Shown here: positions 11,245 to 49,560 of the stretch, piece after piece
Numbering within the stretch: position 1 is the first letter of the stretch
Layout of the letters: each line of letters starts with the position of its first letter
Assembly: GCA_963743885.1 (NCBI GenBank)
Contig: CAVURJ010000001.1
Location: 566,321-630,320, forward strand
Direction: 5' to 3'
DNA: 64,000 nucleotides
From: Candidatus Moraniibacteriota bacterium
Lineage (GTDB): Bacteria; Patescibacteriota; Minisyncoccia; Moranbacterales; UBA1568
Made by a program: the position numbers and the translations under genes
The notes under the pieces: generated by a model
The model's database searches: none
The model's input: the letters and a program-made list of their open reading frames with translations, nothing else
What the model was told of the DNA's origin: nothing

Positions 11245-11245
11245 A

Positions 11246-11365
11246 ATCATGAATCAGGAATCATGAATCAAGAAACAGCATCTAGAGAGGCTGTTTTCGG
11301 TATGGTATAGTATGAGAAAGGGATTTCTCGTCATAATTCTCGATTCTTAATTCCTGATTCTTCTT
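11246..11365. repeat. Low-complexity imperfect inverted repeat spacer built from gaatca / tgattc words
   Basis: gaatcatgaatcaggaatcatgaatcaag ... attctcgattcttaattcctgattcttcttc. It also contains a short hairpin AACAGC...GCTGTT followed by TTTT. Confidence 0.5.
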
Positions 11366-11369
11366 CAGA

Positions 11370-12128
11370 ATGATCTTCCATTTCGCCGTACTCTTCTGGA
11401 CCGCTGTCTTTTCGTCCTGGCTGGGATATCTGGCTTTTTCGCCAGCTGAGCCGTCATGGGGATGGTATGCACTCTCTATCCTTCCGCTCGTCGCCATATC
11501 GCTCGTCGCCGGGCATCGGGTGGCTGGCGCATTCTCTGGTGCATCGCTTTCTGTGCTGTTGTCTGTCACGGCACCGGTTTTGCTTTCATTTATCGACCGG
11601 CCGGCTGAACGGCAGGCGTTCGTTGCGCTGACCGCTCTCATGTACTACGTGTCGCTCATCGGAGCATATCGACTGCGGCATGCGCCGAATGACCGTACTG
11701 CGCAGTCGATGCTCAATGCGTCAGCGATGGCGGCGATGTTTTTTTTCTTCGCTGGATTGTACGGCTTTTATCTCAACTTCTCTTTCCCGCTCTGGGGGCT
11801 GATGGTACTGTATTTCCTTGGAGCCGCGTTTGTTAGTCGGGAGACGTTCGTCGATGTCGACCGGGGCGATGAGAGCCCGCGCGTGACGGTCTACAGCGTG
11901 CTCATTGGTCTCGTGATGGGCGAGATGGCCTGGGTTTCAAGTCTTTGGCCGTTCGGTTATCTGACGGTCGGCGCTATCAACCTTGTGTTGTTTTTCATCG
12001 CGTGGGATGTGGCTTCCGATGCGTTCCGCAAGGAACTTTCGCTCAAGAAGGCCGTGGCGCGTATCCTCTTCTTCATCGCGGTTATTGCGGCGCTCTTCCT
12101 TTCTTCGCCTTGGAGAATCCTGGTCTGA
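11370..12128 (+). CDS. Polytopic membrane protein, function unknown
   Basis: 252 aa with six or more hydrophobic helices. No motif recognised. Confidence 0.5.
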   Translation: MIFHFAVLFWTAVFSSWLGYLAFSPAEPSWGWYALSILPLVAISLVAGHRVAGAFSGASLSVLLSVTAPVLLSFIDRPAERQAFVALTALMYYVSLIGAYRLRHAPNDRTAQSMLNASAMAAMFFFFAGLYGFYLNFSFPLWGLMVLYFLGAAFVSRETFVDVDRGDESPRVTVYSVLIGLVMGEMAWVSSLWPFGYLTVGAINLVLFFIAWDVASDAFRKELSLKKAVARILFFIAVIAALFLSSPWRILV

Positions 12129-27483: not shown

Positions 27484-28443
27484 ATGAAGATACTCATCAC
27501 AGGCGGGGCTGGTTTCATTGGGAGCGCGACAGCGAAGAAGCTCATGGATCGCGGTGATACGCCGATCTTGATCGACAATTTCAATGATTATTATGATCCG
27601 CAGTTGAAGAAGGATCGTATCTCGAAGTTGCTTAAGGGCTACAAGGGCCGGTACACGTTGTACAAGGGTGATATCCGTGATCAGAAGTTCATCGAACGCG
27701 TCTTCAAGAAGGAACGTCCGGCGAAGGTACTCAATCTGGCGGCGATGGCCGGCGTGCGCAATTCGCTCCTCGATCCGCGCCTGTATGCTGATGTGAATGT
27801 GATGGGCTTCATCAATCTGCTCGAGGCGGCGGTGAAGTACAAAGTCAAGAACTTCGTCTACGCGTCGTCCTCGTCGGTCTATGGCAACAATACCAAGGTG
27901 CCGTTTGCGGAGACTGATCCGGTTGATACACCGATCTCGCCGTATGCCGCGACCAAGAAAGCGAATGAGCTTATTGCACATACCTATAGTCATATCTATA
28001 AGCTTCCGACGACCGGGCTCCGCTATTTCACCGTTTATGGCCCGTGGGGTCGGCCGGATATGGCGCTCTACAAGTTCGTGAAGAATACGTTTTCCGGTGA
28101 GTCAATCGATGTCTACAACCGCGGCAAGATGAGCCGCAACTTCACGTATATCGATGATATCGTTTCCGGCACGATCGTCGCGCTCGATACGCTGCAGCCG
28201 TATGCGGTCATGAACATCGGTGGTGACCGCGAGGAGACGCTCATGCGCTTCATTGAAGTGATCGAGGAGAATGTCGGCAAGAAGGCGAAGAAGCGGATGC
28301 TGCCGATCCAGCCGGGCGACGTGCCGTCGACGGTCGCGGATATCCGGAAGCTCCGGAAGCTTGGCTGGAAGCCGACGACCCGAATCGAGCAGGGCATCAA
28401 GAATTTCGTCGATTGGTATCGCGAGTACTATAAGGTAGCGTAA
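27484..28443 (+). CDS. NAD-dependent nucleotide-sugar epimerase (UDP-glucuronate / UDP-GlcNAc 4-epimerase-like SDR)
   Basis: ILITGGAGFIGS Rossmann motif, the YAATK catalytic motif (SPYAATKKANE), and extended-SDR features. Confidence 0.85.
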   Translation: MKILITGGAGFIGSATAKKLMDRGDTPILIDNFNDYYDPQLKKDRISKLLKGYKGRYTLYKGDIRDQKFIERVFKKERPAKVLNLAAMAGVRNSLLDPRLYADVNVMGFINLLEAAVKYKVKNFVYASSSSVYGNNTKVPFAETDPVDTPISPYAATKKANELIAHTYSHIYKLPTTGLRYFTVYGPWGRPDMALYKFVKNTFSGESIDVYNRGKMSRNFTYIDDIVSGTIVALDTLQPYAVMNIGGDREETLMRFIEVIEENVGKKAKKRMLPIQPGDVPSTVADIRKLRKLGWKPTTRIEQGIKNFVDWYREYYKVA

Positions 28444-28631
28444 GAGCCTATCCCAATAGATTACCGCGGAAGTAAAAAAAGAAACCTCGCTTGTCGGCTG
28501 AAATTCCAGAATTTCGGCTGCAAATCCTGAAAGACTCGGCGGAATAGCTACAGTATCCCTTCTCCTCTTTCAGAGATTTTCGCTCGAAATTCTGGAATTT
28601 GCATCTCGACATACTCTATTGGGATAGGCTC
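28444..28631. repeat. Nested ~190-bp palindrome with three tiers of inverted repeats
   Basis: Outer arms gagcctatcccaataga / tctattgggataggctc (17 bp, perfect). Middle arms gaaattccagaatttc / gaaattctggaattt. Inner arms cctgaaaga / tctttcagag. Confidence 0.7.
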
Positions 28632-28760
28632 TAGGGGGAATGAATCCCGTTAGAAGCCGCGGCCACGACTGTTTTTTTGGTGGGATTTCGTTTGTCGATG
28701 ATAAGTATTGTATATTAGGTATGGCGCGACGATATGTGGTCGCGACCTGCTTCTAACGGG

Positions 28761-29933
28761 ATGAGAATAGCGCTGGTCCATGATTATCTGGTGCAGTACG
28801 GCGGAGCTGAGCGAGTGCTTGAAGCGTTCACCGAGCTTTATCCGTACGCGCCGATCTATACACTCATCCATGATCGCGAGGCGATGCATGGCGTTTTTGA
28901 CGATAAGCGGATCTACACGTCGTTTCTCCAGAAACTGCCGTTCTCGCGCAAGCGTCACCGCTTCTTCCCGCCACTCATGCCACTTGCGATCGAGCAGTTC
29001 GATTTTTCGAAATACGATGTCGTGCTGTCCGATTCGTCGAGCTATGCCAAGGGCATCATCACTCGTCCAGAGACACTCCATATCTCGTATGTGCATACGC
29101 CGATGCGCTATGCCTGGGACGACTGTCAGAAGTACACGCAGGACTTCGGCCTGCCGCGCTTCGTGAAGCGTTTGGTGCCGTTTTTCATGAATCCAATCCG
29201 GATCTGGGACAAGGCGAGCGCTGATCGCGTCGACCGTTTTTTGGCGAATTCTCAGTTCGTCGCCAAGCGTATTGCGAAATACTATCGCAAAGAGGCGACA
29301 GTCATCCATCCGCCGGTCAATGTGGACCGTTTCTATGTCGCTCGGCCGGAAGATCGCAAAGACTACTTTCTCATGGTAGGGCGGCTCATCGCGTACAAGC
29401 GTCACGATATCGCTATCGAGGCGTTCAACCGGCTGAAGCTCCCGCTCAAGATCATCGGTCGCGGTCCGGAGTTCGACCGTCTGAAGAAGCTGGCTGGACC
29501 GACGATCGAATTCCTCGGGCGTGTACCGGAAGAGGAGTTGCCGAAACAGTATGCTGAGTGTCGCGCGTTCGTCTTTCCACAGGAAGAGGATTTCGGCATC
29601 GTGGCGATCGAGGCGATGGCTGCCGGCCGACCGCTTATCGCCTATCGGGGCGGTGATATCGTCGAGCACCTCGAGGCAGGCAGGATGGGAGAGCTCTTCG
29701 ATGTCCAGAGCGCCGATGCGATCGAGGCGGCGGTACGCTCCTTCGATGAGAGCCACTATGACCCGGCTTATATTCGCTCCAAGTCGCTCTCCTTTGACAA
29801 AGAGCGGTTTAAGGCTACAATAAAGGACTATGTTGAAAATGCTCTCCAAGAGCATTTAATATCTAATTCCAAATTTCTAATTTCTAATGAAATATCTAAT
29901 GTCTCAATTCCGAATTCTAGCATTAGACATTAG
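28761..29933 (+). CDS. Glycosyltransferase family 4
   Basis: MRIALVHDYLVQYGGAERV is a typical GT4 N-terminus. The ORF track starts it at 28734. The C-terminal tail runs into the low-complexity spacer, so the true stop is uncertain. Confidence 0.8.
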   Translation: MRIALVHDYLVQYGGAERVLEAFTELYPYAPIYTLIHDREAMHGVFDDKRIYTSFLQKLPFSRKRHRFFPPLMPLAIEQFDFSKYDVVLSDSSSYAKGIITRPETLHISYVHTPMRYAWDDCQKYTQDFGLPRFVKRLVPFFMNPIRIWDKASADRVDRFLANSQFVAKRIAKYYRKEATVIHPPVNVDRFYVARPEDRKDYFLMVGRLIAYKRHDIAIEAFNRLKLPLKIIGRGPEFDRLKKLAGPTIEFLGRVPEEELPKQYAECRAFVFPQEEDFGIVAIEAMAAGRPLIAYRGGDIVEHLEAGRMGELFDVQSADAIEAAVRSFDESHYDPAYIRSKSLSFDKERFKATIKDYVENALQEHLISNSKFLISNEISNVSIPNSSIRH

Positions 29934-29960
29934 GATTTTTGTTAGGAATTAGTAATTAGA
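29856..29960. repeat. Low-complexity imperfect inverted repeat spacer (ctaatttctaat / attagaaattag words)
   Basis: Read directly from the sequence. Confidence 0.45.
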
Positions 29961-29976
29961 TATTGGAAATTATCTT

Positions 29977-42373: not shown

Positions 42374-42375
42374 AG

Positions 42376-42540
42376 AATGGTGAATTGAGAATCAAGAATT
42401 ATGAATGGGATGGGATCCGGAGAGTGTATTTCCAGGAATGGATGCTTTGCAGTTTTTGTCAGCAAATCGTACAAGAAAGGGAAACGGCTGATATGCAAAT
42501 CTTGATTCTTAATTCTTGATTCTGGATTCTTTTCCTATTA
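42376..42540. repeat. Low-complexity imperfect inverted repeat spacer (gaatcaagaattatgaatgg / aatcttgattcttaattcttgattc)
   Basis: Uses the same word family as the spacer at 11246. Confidence 0.45.
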
Positions 42541-43397
42541 TGGCTTTACGGAGGAAATTCACACAGACCAAATTCTTCAAAGCGATGGTCGTTGCCGCCA
42601 TCCTTGGTCTGTTCATGGTGTTTCCGCCACGTTTTCTTTCTGACCCGCTCCGCGCGTTTTTTTCGATGGTTGCCTGGCCGATCGGGAAGGTGGCGTCATT
42701 CGTATCTTTCGAGGCGAGTGATGCCGCGCGCTTCTTCTCTTCCATAGGCAGCTTGAAGGATGAGAATATCCGTCTCGAGAAGGAGCGCTTGGTTCTTCTT
42801 GCTGAGAATGCCCGGCTTGCCGATCTGGTGAAAGATGATGAGACGCTCCGGAGCGAGCTTGGTCTTTTGCCGCGCGACGCGTTCGATCTTGCAGCCGTAT
42901 CAGTCATCGGACGTGAGGACGCTGATGGATCCGGGCACGCACTTATCATCGACCATGGATCCCTTTCTGGTATTGCAGAAGGAATGCCAGTCATCGTGTC
43001 GGGTGGCAAGACGGCTGCCGGCGCGTCTTCTGGCGTGCTCGTTGGACGTGTCGACCAGGTTTTCCCAGCGAGCGCTCGAGTGATGCTGGTTTCTGATCCT
43101 GAGAGTCGTATCAACGCTATCGTTCCAGATACCGATGCGCGTGGCATCGTGAAGGGTGAACATGGGCTCGGGGCGATGCTTGATATGGTGCTCCAAGCGG
43201 ATGCTATCCATGCTGGCGATACGGTTGTGACATCAGGGCTTGGCGGCGATATGCCAGAAGGTCTCCTTATCGGTACGCTCCAGGACCCGAGCTTTTCGCC
43301 TGACCGACTTTTCCGCCGCGCTGCGGTGGTCTTTCCTGTCCGTCATGATCGCCTGCGATACGTCTTTGTCATAATCGGTCCAGCAAAGAAACCATGA
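42540..43397 (+). CDS. mreC: Rod shape-determining protein MreC
   Basis: N-terminal TM, a coiled coil (LKDENIRLEKERLVLLAEN), and a beta-barrel domain. It lies directly downstream of mreB. Confidence 0.75.
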   Translation: MALRRKFTQTKFFKAMVVAAILGLFMVFPPRFLSDPLRAFFSMVAWPIGKVASFVSFEASDAARFFSSIGSLKDENIRLEKERLVLLAENARLADLVKDDETLRSELGLLPRDAFDLAAVSVIGREDADGSGHALIIDHGSLSGIAEGMPVIVSGGKTAAGASSGVLVGRVDQVFPASARVMLVSDPESRINAIVPDTDARGIVKGEHGLGAMLDMVLQADAIHAGDTVVTSGLGGDMPEGLLIGTLQDPSFSPDRLFRRAAVVFPVRHDRLRYVFVIIGPAKKP

Positions 43398-43942
43398 AGA
43401 TATTCCTTCTCCGATCTTCTGCTATCGTTATCGCTGTCGCACTGCAGCTGTCATTCTTCGATATCGCTTTTCCGTGGTTCCATGTGCCGCTCCTGCTCAT
43501 AGCGTGTGTGGTGGCCTGGACGCTCGCACTCGGCTTTCCTGAATCGCTTCGGATGACCGTGCCGCTCTCGGTCGCTTTCGAGGTGTTTTCCTCGGGTACT
43601 GTCGGTATTTTCTCGCTCTACGCCGTCCTCCTCGCGTATGCGACGAGCTTCCTGTCGCGCCGTATTTTGGTCGGGCAGCGCGGTGCCGGTGCATTTTTGT
43701 ATGCAGTCTTCACGGCGGCGATGGCGCTCGCTTATCAGGGAGCGATGTATCTGCTTCTGCGTAGCCGGACAGATGCCGCCGAGTCGGATCTTCTGCGTCT
43801 CCCATCTGAATTTTCACCTGGTATGCTGTTCCTTTCTGTCGCTCTTGCCATCCTAGCGTTCCTCATCGCCTATCCGGCCATCTTACGCTTCGAAGAGCGT
43901 GCGAAATCAATTGCCCAGAAGCAGTTTTTGAATGTCAGGTAA
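43394..43942 (+). CDS. mreD: Putative rod shape-determining protein MreD
   Basis: A small polytopic membrane protein that overlaps the mreC stop, between mreC and mrdA. Confidence 0.5.
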   Translation: MKIFLLRSSAIVIAVALQLSFFDIAFPWFHVPLLLIACVVAWTLALGFPESLRMTVPLSVAFEVFSSGTVGIFSLYAVLLAYATSFLSRRILVGQRGAGAFLYAVFTAAMALAYQGAMYLLLRSRTDAAESDLLRLPSEFSPGMLFLSVALAILAFLIAYPAILRFEERAKSIAQKQFLNVR

Positions 43943-44099
43943 TATGCCCGGTAGTAGAATTTCGAAATGAGATTCTTCCAGGGAATGAAAAAACCGATGT
44001 ACGTATTTTTCCACGGTCGTAGGAAAATATGTACATTCTGAATCAAAAGAGATATAGACGTGATTAAGTTAATTGTTCGAAATTTCACTACCGGGTATG
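43941..44099 (+). promoter_or_regulatory. Long-range inverted repeat, copy B. The 5' arm is atatgcccggtagtagaatttcgaa (43941-43965) and the 3' arm is ttcgaaatttcactaccgggtATG (44076-44099), containing the mrdA start codon
   Basis: The arms are reverse complements of each other at 20 of 22 positions. An internal GTACGTATTTTTCC...GGAAAATATGTAC inverted repeat lies between them. Confidence 0.6.
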
Positions 44100-47546: not shown

Positions 47547-47680
47547 CTATGCCTGGTAGTAGAACTTCGACCGAGCATTCAGAATTATTACAAAAAGGCA
47601 GGTATTTCCGATATAACAAGAACTAATCAATCTTCCTCGATTTCATAAGAAATTGTCGAAGTTTCACTGACTTAGGTATG
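47547..47680 (+). promoter_or_regulatory. Long-range inverted repeat, copy C. The 5' arm is ctatgcctggtagtagaacttcga (47547-47570) and the 3' arm is tcgaagtttcactgacttaggtATG (47656-47680), containing the lysS start codon
   Basis: The match between arms is less perfect than in copies A and B: an 8-bp perfect core AACTTCGA plus flanking matches. Confidence 0.5.
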
Positions 47681-49275: not shown

Positions 49276-49341
49276 GGATGATTAGCTCAGTTGGTTACCC
49301 GCCCGAACGTACCGTTCGGTACGGGCGGGGAGCACAGCATT
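49276..49341 (+). other. tRNA-like 5' fragment (acceptor GGATGAT, D-arm GCTC-AGTTGGTTA-GAGC) carrying a 32-nt GC-rich palindromic insert in the D-loop
   Basis: GGATGATTAGCTCAGTTGGTTA [cccgcccgaacgtaccgttcggtacgggcggg] GAGCACAGCATT. The anticodon stem cannot close, so this is not a functional tRNA as written. Confidence 0.45.
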
Positions 49342-49349
49342 AACAACCT

Positions 49350-49423
49350 GGTCGCATAGTTCAGTTGGTTAGAACGTTCGATTCACATTCGAAAGGTCCC
49401 TGGTTCGAGTCCAGGTGCGACCA
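49350..49423 (+). tRNA. tRNA-Val (anticodon CAC)
   Basis: Clean cloverleaf: acceptor GGTCGCA/TGCGACC, D-arm AGTTCAGTTGGTTAGAACG, anticodon stem TTCGA/TCGAA with loop TTCACAT, T-arm CCTGG-TTCGAGT-CCAGG, discriminator A. No CCA is encoded. Confidence 0.85.
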
Positions 49424-49440
49424 CAGGAGGAGTTTAAGTG

Positions 49441-49560
49441 GTTCAGTTTCTGCTCGGAGTTGAGCAGTTGGTTACCCGCCCGTACCGAACGGTACGTTCG
49501 GGCGGGGAGCACAGCATTCACATTGCTGGGGTCACTGGTTCGAATCCAGTATTGTCCACA
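49441..49560 (+). other. tRNA-derived partial duplicate: D-loop, the 32-nt insert in reverse orientation, and a tRNA-Val(CAC) 3' portion (CAGCATTCACATTGCTG-GGGTC-ACTGGTTCGAATCCAGT-ATTGTCC)
   Basis: It shares a 40-nt exact block with 49613-49653. No matching 5' acceptor strand is present. Confidence 0.45.

Follow-up and report, generated by a model that had tools for sequence, protein, structure and literature searches.

The Correia or NEMIS elements of Neisseria are miniature inverted-repeat transposable elements (MITEs): non-coding stretches of 100-160 bp with terminal inverted repeats and a short target duplication, which lie by genes in many copies, are co-transcribed with them and form stems that are RNase III substrates. 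An inverted repeat of similar build occupies the mreD-mrdA junction of a Candidatus Moraniibacteriota bacterium, within the 64,000-nt stretch of DNA analysed here (contig CAVURJ010000001.1, positions 566,321 to 630,320; 'the window'), where its 3' arm takes in the start codon of mrdA, the gene for PBP2. This repeat is the two ends of a mobile element and not a purpose-built regulator, and judging from the sequence, the segment 43947-44095 is very probably a non-autonomous, MITE-like member, 149 bp long, of a family of tiny mobile elements that is spread across the Patescibacteria. It resembles the Neisseria elements in its size, inverted ends, short duplication, gene-adjacent copies and ends that form a long RNA stem, and differs from them in its unrelated sequence, a TATG rather than a TA duplication, a GIY-YIG rather than a DDE partner, and a position fixed at the start codon.

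Free-standing GIY-YIG homing genes, such as T4 seg and the relatives of I-TevI, possess a large DNA-binding domain and move by recombination into one allelic site. The present family likewise has a selfish gene for a GIY-YIG nuclease that sits between genes of the host, but its protein is the catalytic domain only and the gene is bounded by inverted ends and a target duplication. Since near-identical elements adjoin many unrelated targets, this is not a homing endonuclease gene. A further point of comparison is provided by the REP sequences, for which GTAG is the typical tetranucleotide. REPINs with their RAYT, IS200/IS605 elements and the PATE derivatives depend on Y1/HUH and make no target duplication (also discussed in PMC11893778). 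What the family shares with them is repeats that form hairpins, vary in the loop and show compensatory changes in the stem; REPIN and IS200/IS605 elements are thought to move as single-stranded DNA.

The Ssn proteins are single-domain GIY-YIG nucleases of about 94 aa that cleave single-stranded DNA next to the hairpin repeat they recognise, SRM/NTS (Chenal et al. 2025, Nat Commun 16:2388, PMC11893778). The ssn genes are flanked by this repeat, a layout that the authors call IS-like, and the paper mentions neither Patescibacteria nor start codons (PMC11893778). By size, domain and layout the present family is reminiscent of this system: its protein (93-106 aa) is also a single-domain GIY-YIG protein without a separate DNA-binding domain, its nuclease gene is flanked by the repeat on both sides (in all ten full-length elements), and the repeat is multi-copy and lies outside and beside genes, the SRM hairpin being recognised as single-stranded DNA. 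The differences lie in the repeats, which here pair across the whole element whereas SRMs are self-contained hairpins of 20-50 nt, and in the setting, with insertions at start codons, a nuclease open reading frame (ORF) that uses the host ATG, and Patescibacteria as hosts. The SRM consensus HGTCWY...RNCYNB was matched by none of 98 elements of the family and by none of the three copies in the window. Unlike in the Ssn/SRM system, mobility is directly visible here because of a 4-bp target duplication and clear empty sites.

Filled and empty sites at the mreD-mrdA junction

The gene order at the locus is mreB-mreC-(mreD)-mrdA, and the closest PBP2 homologues are those of Candidatus Moranbacteria, which belong to the Patescibacteria or candidate phyla radiation (CPR). 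When the mrdA loci of four relatives (PBP2 90, 89, 85 and 73% identical) were compared with the window, the mreD stop was found to precede the TATG start of mrdA by 1-6 nt in all four, with nothing inserted (Table 1). In the window the junction reads TAAtATG[CCCGGTAG...CTACCGGG]tATGaag, that is 149 bp and a second TATG, 153 bp in all that the relatives lack at this junction. The TAA of the mreD-position ORF (43940-43942) lies 1 nt upstream of the left TATG; an NCBIfam search with this ORF gave no match. In an independent assembly of the same population, whose PBP2 is 100% identical, the mreD end and an internal Met15 are likewise 197 nt apart, and the mrdA insert is therefore not an assembly artefact but belongs to the lineage. 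No copy of the element was found in the relatives within the 36 kb examined.

A search with the arm sequence found two further copies in the window, A and C (the mrdA copy being B), in agreement with a window-wide repeat search, while 100 shuffles of the window gave zero matches to the arm. All three copies lie on the + strand, start with TATG-CCYGGTAG and end with GG-TATG, the final ATG being the start codon of the next ORF; behind copy C this is lysS (NF001756, E 7e-158). The lysS site is also found empty: L002 reads cacagcTATGcgcgaag after a conserved promoter-like stretch where the window has ...aacacTATG[CCTGGTAG...CTTAGG]TATGcgcgaag. Structural features of a MITE are found together here, namely a 149-bp core without a transposase gene, 20-bp terminal inverted repeats, a 4-bp target duplication, precise empty sites (for mrdA in L001, L002, L003 and L117, for lysS in L002) and a longer coding element with the same ends. 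We take the window copy to be non-autonomous because its full-length relatives encode a nuclease of which it keeps an 8-codon relic; from its sequence, the frame MPGSRISK followed by a stop (43944-43970) is a remnant of the arm-encoded N-terminus of the GIY-YIG nuclease.

The repeat itself had been described in an earlier note on this DNA as a long-range pairing over about 20 of 22 positions with a second inverted repeat between the arms and the mrdA start within the 3' arm, and all of this was upheld. The arms, ATGCCCGGTAGTAGAATTTCGAA at 43944-43966 and TTCGAAATTTCACTACCGGGTAT at 44076-44098, each measure 23 nt, show 87% Watson-Crick complementarity and are separated by 109 nt, and the inner repeat (43997-44015 / 44018-44036) has arms of 19 nt with 84% complementarity. 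With G.U pairs allowed, the predicted RNA closing stem has about 26 bp with a single A.C mismatch and pairs all three bases of the AUG (44097-44099), so that on the mRNA it would bury the start codon; the minimum free energy of -56.3 kcal/mol corresponds to z = -5.6, and none of 200 shuffles equalled it. As single-stranded DNA both strands fold as well (z = -4.4 and -3.6). The spacer is AT-rich, with 34-40% G+C against 55-60% in the genes on either side. The start codon is part of the arm because TATG was the site of insertion and its duplicated copies partly pair with each other (U.G, A-U, U-A, G.U).

The note had furthermore proposed that the ribosome-binding region of mrdA is sequestered. 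The AUG does lie in the predicted stem, but no Shine-Dalgarno sequence was seen upstream of mrdA, or of most of the roughly 50 gene starts of the window, and the statement thus shrinks to a sequestered AUG. TATG, with T at -1, is the usual start context in the window (24 of the 49 ORFs taken as genes). As to the start itself, its placement at ATG 44097 holds: the N-terminus MKLFVKKNEYRSGSMEIDD is conserved in the four orthologues with the mreD stop immediately before it, and the residues MKLFVKKNEYRSGS after the ATG are kept in these orthologues, whose upstream neighbour ends just ahead of the ATG. The alternative start, TTG 44073, was rejected; it is part of the insert, and the four orthologues have nothing that corresponds to it. 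A copy of PBP2 in the public database (P0001, 615 aa) is called from the internal Met15 (44139) and is 14 residues short, which may be caused by the element separating the true start from mreD; the PBP2 of several relatives is also called from Met15, and two of these (L002, L003) lack the element. Exact-protein look-ups of the window PBP2, with either candidate start, and of LysRS gave no match, the database PBP2 beginning at Met15.

That the repeat is a dedicated cis-regulatory RNA leader of mrdA, be it a thermosensor, an attenuator or a translational operator that masks the start codon, would be in keeping with a stable predicted stem that takes in the AUG and with the covariation of the arms across copies. 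An mrdA-specific leader is nevertheless contradicted by the empty sites, the 153 bp being absent from the orthologous junction in four relatives. The same arms, moreover, recur in the window at the 36-aa ORF and lysS, and across the Patescibacteria they adjoin unrelated genes numbering in the hundreds, from many phylum-level lineages; a 4-bp duplication flanks the repeat, related copies carry a nuclease gene, and an Rfam search at gathering and E-value thresholds returned just tRNAs and noise, with no family for the mrdA repeat. A dedicated leader is very improbable on these grounds.

Table 1. Features of the mrdA locus, sister copies in the window and empty mrdA sites in relatives
Feature	Position	Strand	Basis or junction sequence
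mreD-position ORF, no family match	43394..43942	+	ORF list; synteny mreB-mreC-(182 aa)-mrdA in L001-L003, L117
Left TATG target-site duplication, original mrdA start site in original context	43943..43946	+	single TATG in relatives
Relic upstream ORF MPGSRISK*, spans exactly the left arm	43944..43970	+	direct translation; full-length ORFs begin MPG[SR]..[TI]S[NK]
Left terminal inverted repeat, core CCCGGTAGTAGAATTTCGAA, 'Y' arm type	43947..43966	+	20-bp stem from 227 unique arm pairs
AT-rich non-coding interior with inner hairpin 43997-44036, unrelated to copies A/C	43967..44075	+	interior comparison
Right terminal inverted repeat TTCGAAATTTCACTACCGGG, reverse complement of 'X' arm	44076..44095	+	repeat search, arm-pair set
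Right TATG duplication; ATG 44097-44099 is the working mrdA start	44096..44099	+	sequence, orthologue comparison
mrdA (PBP2), 629 aa	44097..45986	+	TIGR03423 pbp2_mrdA, E 7.5e-168
Copy A: TATG + 126-bp core + TATG; right ATG 4355 starts 36-aa hydrophobic ORF	4224..4357	+	arm and repeat searches
Copy C: TATG + 125-bp core + TATG, degenerate right arm; right ATG 47678 starts lysS	47548..47680	+	arm search, L002 empty site
Empty mrdA site L001			TAAggTATGaag
Empty mrdA site L002			TGAtagcaTATGagg
Empty mrdA site L003			TAGTATGaag
Empty mrdA site L117			TAGccTATGcca

A family at start codons across the Patescibacteria

The extent of the family was determined with two scans. The genome scan, over one genome per species, used a left-arm pattern that required an ATG on the left and returned at least 113 loci; since the pattern itself forced this ATG, the scan was repeated in metagenomes with the arm alone and no ATG required, and returned at least 120 loci. 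More than 250 copies were found across public genomes and metagenomes, nearly all of them in Patescibacteria, and the metagenome-assembled genomes (MAGs) that carry the listed genome loci include Saccharibacteria and Kaiser-, Moran-, Uhr-, Sung-, Buchanan-, Adler- and Kerfeldbacteria. About 85 of the listed genome loci have a complementary right arm 53-371 nt downstream, mostly at 105-140 nt, that ends in ATG. TATG stands on both flanks of 75 of the 98 two-arm genome elements listed, and in 90 of the 98 the right ATG is the start of an ORF that reaches 60 aa or more or continues past the contig end.

The arm-only sample allows the target to be read directly. A partner arm is present for 101 of the 119 metagenome matches listed; 58 of these 101 have TATG on both flanks in either orientation, and identical 4-mers flank about 70 of the 101, copies without ATG included. 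The non-ATG flanks (TACG, AAAA, TGGA, TGAA, CCAG, TCAA, CTTG) belong mainly to a short class of 60-80 nt. Of the 64 ATG-flanked metagenome copies listed, 58 adjoin an ORF that is 60 aa or longer or that is cut off by the contig end. Only 24 of the 86 non-coding TATGs of the window are start codons, which gives an expectation of 28% and a P of about 1e-22 for the observed association. The element makes a 4-bp target-site duplication, prefers TATG and sits at start codons far above expectation. A 3-bp 'ATG-only' duplication with the T belonging to the element had been considered, as the base before the left ATG varies, and was dropped in view of the matching 4-mers in the arm-only scan. The 60-80-nt class (L121, L149, L182, L183, L195, L200, L213, L220) has the same arms with non-ATG duplications, and apparently lacks the start-codon preference of the 120-140-nt class.

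The ends of the family are 20-bp terminal inverted repeats, CCCGGTAG-nnn-AAYTTCGA plus complement, and across 227 distinct arm pairs the stem, counted from CCCGG, is likewise 20 bp long. Compensatory changes occur at stem positions 14 (C-G in 109 pairs, T-A in 93), 17, 18 and 20, and position 14 varies even between the copies inside this one window, which argues that pairing itself is constrained, as single-stranded DNA or as RNA. At arm positions 10-11 the most frequent state, seen in about 160 of the 227 pairs, combines G.T with A.C. An asymmetry between G.U and A.C was considered as a sign of selection at the RNA level and discarded, because the wobbles at the stem base stem from the TATG duplication and the pair at positions 10-11 is symmetric. 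Paralogous short copies within single MAGs share 72-90% of their interior, as expected of recent amplification (seven short copies in the JBDRFP01 MAG), while the Moranbacteria copies do not, and the window's three interiors are unrelated.

Inverted repeats about 110 bp apart directly upstream of genes might also be recombinase sites around an invertible promoter (an inverton), and one weak promoter-like match (ATGTCA-17-TAGAAT) does overlap the left arm of the mrdA element; neither this match, the one promoter candidate found within the element, nor the loosely conserved AAGWTAATT before the right arm is convincing as a promoter. Against a switch of this kind, the targets include essential genes (mrdA, lysS, other aminoacyl-tRNA synthetases, gyrA), the flanks are direct 4-bp duplications and the site is empty in close relatives. 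Both orientations of one interior were not seen at any one locus, in loci that were not screened for recombinase genes. The probability that the repeat is an inverton is close to negligible.

Several variants of the family deserve mention. A 'GAC' arm subfamily (L016, L032, L039, L046, L076, L080, L097, L105, L107), mostly from Kaiserbacteria, has short copies of 138 bp, in about half of which a 43-codon ORF opens at the left ATG, crosses the entire element and closes with a TAA in the right arm, leaving 6 nt up to the host ATG; this stop codon includes the additional A by which the 'GAC' right arm bulges. In the 'TGA' arm subfamily (L010, L011, L017, L091, L098, L101, L114 and others) a small hairpin just inside the left arm is followed by an A-run, and the hairpin occurs in the compensatory variants GAGTCC..GGACTC, GGCCGC..GCGGCC and GATTTTCC..GGAAAATC. 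L077 harbours a tandem array (7436-7864) of at least four element copies that share TATG between neighbours and of which two interiors are identical; it could result from insertion into the element's own duplicated target or from tandem duplication. At L023 (6413-6539) and L073 (1245-1449) a single element with a CATG at either end separates two divergent genes, both of which draw their start codon from its boundary. A supposed insertion of the L084 element in 16S rRNA (flank AGAGTTTGATCATG) proved wrong, the flank being the start of a reverse-strand protein gene.

Full-length relatives and their nuclease

Ten distinct elements of 298-345 bp have the same arms and one ORF each of 93-106 aa. 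All ten ORFs open with the left duplicated ATG, so that the left arm itself supplies the first eight codons, MPG[SR]..[TI]S[NK]; they have the orientation of the host gene and end 4-57 nt short of its ATG, with a TAA within the right arm as the stop in one subfamily. The encoded protein is a single-domain GIY-YIG nuclease similar to UPF0213, SLX1 and Ssn proteins, with PF01541 as the only domain (E 1e-14 to 1e-16). The databases hold 88 homologues of 73-119 aa with the arm-encoded N-terminus (MPGSTTS), and those that have a source name are annotated as GIY-YIG nuclease family protein or putative endonuclease. By sequence the nearest solved structures are two UPF0213 proteins, BH0048 and EF2693, and after these SLX1; the confidently predicted structure (pLDDT, the predicted local distance difference test, 87) adopts the GIY-YIG fold, and a ranking by fold again gives UPF0213 and SLX1, with I-TevI and UvrC more distant. 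Full-length elements that are 86-92% identical in DNA sequence stand at the start codons of unrelated genes, and the coding form has therefore moved as a unit. Among the hosts of near-identical elements are genes that we take, from their N-termini, to encode ArgRS, SerRS and GyrA.

These data also bear on the notion that the family is a palindromic element of the REP/REPIN or IS200/IS605 type, moved by a Y1 (HUH) transposase, with the GIY-YIG gene as unrelated cargo. The arm contains GTAG, the tetranucleotide known from REPs, and the hairpin layout, the variable loop and the compensatory stem changes are similar to those of REPINs. Elements of those types, however, do not make a 4-bp target duplication, and the sole ORF found between the arms is the GIY-YIG gene, which always starts at the left ATG (10 of 10); the loci and the window were not systematically screened for Y1 transposases. 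Because of the duplication and the GIY-YIG gene as the sole associated ORF, the family is not considered a REP/IS200-type element, and a Y1-driven origin seems decidedly improbable.

Mobility, translation of mrdA and wider significance

The model that we favour for the mobile element starts with a copy that inserted into the TATG of mrdA, right behind the mreD stop. The nuclease would be the mobilising enzyme and would read the single-stranded-DNA hairpin formed by the two ends of the element, much as Ssn does with its repeats. As its ORF begins at the left duplicated ATG, the nuclease takes over the host initiation site and the right ATG then serves the host; in the long form the nuclease would thus be translated from the host gene's own initiation site, and the host gene by termination-reinitiation a few nt further on.

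For the short copy at mrdA, the stem would mask the mrdA AUG on the mreBCD-mrdA mRNA. Ribosomes that end mreD may restart at the left AUG, 1 nt past the mreD stop, which is the ancestral coupling arrangement, and since the relic ORF spans exactly the 5' arm, ribosomes translating its eight codons would melt the stem and free the mrdA AUG. Alternatively, RNase III may cut the 26-bp stem. Any such effect of the stem on mrdA translation is inferred. In the RNA phage MS2 the replicase start codon is masked by pairing with a distant, translated segment upstream, in the coat gene. The route proposed for mrdA expression is similar in that a masked start would be opened by upstream translation, and differs in that the pairing here arises incidentally from transposon ends and the coupling is putative.

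It is conceivable that an element of mobile origin has since been retained as useful, with the hairpin and the relic ORF setting the translation or mRNA stability of mrdA (and lysS), for instance through RNase III processing as reported for the Correia elements of Neisseria. The arms have stayed nearly perfectly paired though the interiors diverged past alignment, half of one short subfamily keeps the 43-codon ORF described above, and the host genes are often essential. Arm conservation is, however, explained just as well by what mobility requires or by a recent insertion, and the right arm of copy C is degraded and its fold no better than shuffles (z = -1.1). We regard retention for a useful role as unlikely.

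Returning to the mobile element, the full proposal is that the family constitutes a novel class of transposon in prokaryotes, and with about 300 bp the smallest known that is autonomous, in which a 95-residue Ssn/UPF0213-like GIY-YIG nuclease acts on the end hairpin and the element aims at the TATG of start codons, as a translational parasite that gives its host a replacement ATG, usable via termination-reinitiation or by ribosomes melting the stem. We advance it tentatively, with a little less than even confidence. A number of points weigh against the favoured model of a mobile element or against parts of it. GIY-YIG enzymes hydrolyse DNA and are not known as transposases, and the link of the GIY-YIG protein to mobility is drawn by analogy. 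A tblastn search for the nuclease gene in the 64-kb window matched only the 8 arm-encoded codons, and the interiors of copies A, B and C do not align, so that the window copies are old or derive from different source copies. A few carrier MAGs are labelled Bdellovibrionales or Gammaproteobacteria. With regard to coupling, the relic ORF of copy B stops 126 nt before the mrdA AUG, and the favouring of start codons over other TATGs is not explained by the model.

The window contains other notable features, recorded here as separate observations. Directly upstream of copy A, a 710-aa protein (1950-4082) has a CxxC-x17-CxxC domain and weak, sub-threshold matches to coupling-protein ATPases of the TraD/VirD4 type. 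A second, unrelated family of long-range inverted repeats with GAATCA/AGAAT-like units occurs at 42374-42529 in the mreB-mreC spacer and at 11245-11365 upstream of the ORF at 11370; the mreB-mreC spacer measures 110-177 nt in three relatives versus 28 nt in L117, and its repeat may also be an insertion. A perfect inverted repeat of 32 nt (49298-49329 / 49475-49506), each arm of which is a GC-rich palindrome, surrounds tRNA-Val(CAC) at 49350-49424, and a weak second tRNA-Val call (32.6 bits, 49487-49559) overlaps its right arm. Nested or paired inverted repeats with arms of 21-26 nt, unrelated to the CCCGGTAG family, lie between convergent or divergent genes at 28443-28632, 28501-28600 and 29858-29964.

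The family is apparently undescribed: searches of open-access full texts yielded no account, for CPR or for other organisms, of a GIY-YIG element that has inverted ends and sits at start codons, and we know of no insertion-sequence family that uses a GIY-YIG enzyme. If the proposal is true, a 300-bp element with its own nuclease would lower the known size limit of an autonomous transposon, and would tie Ssn-type nucleases directly to mobility, which their discoverers could only suggest. In practical terms, gene callers misplace starts at element sites, as with the shortened database PBP2, and the elements inflate the counts of 'intergenic regulatory hairpins' in CPR genomes, while the sets of nuclease and hairpin are a possible source of new sequence-specific cutters of single-stranded DNA. 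For the hosts, the fact that essential genes, those for PBP2, aminoacyl-tRNA synthetases and gyrase, receive insertions exactly at their start codons in tiny, Shine-Dalgarno-poor genomes raises the question of how ribosomes find an AUG that is hidden in a stem of 26 bp and lies 130 nt away from its former context.

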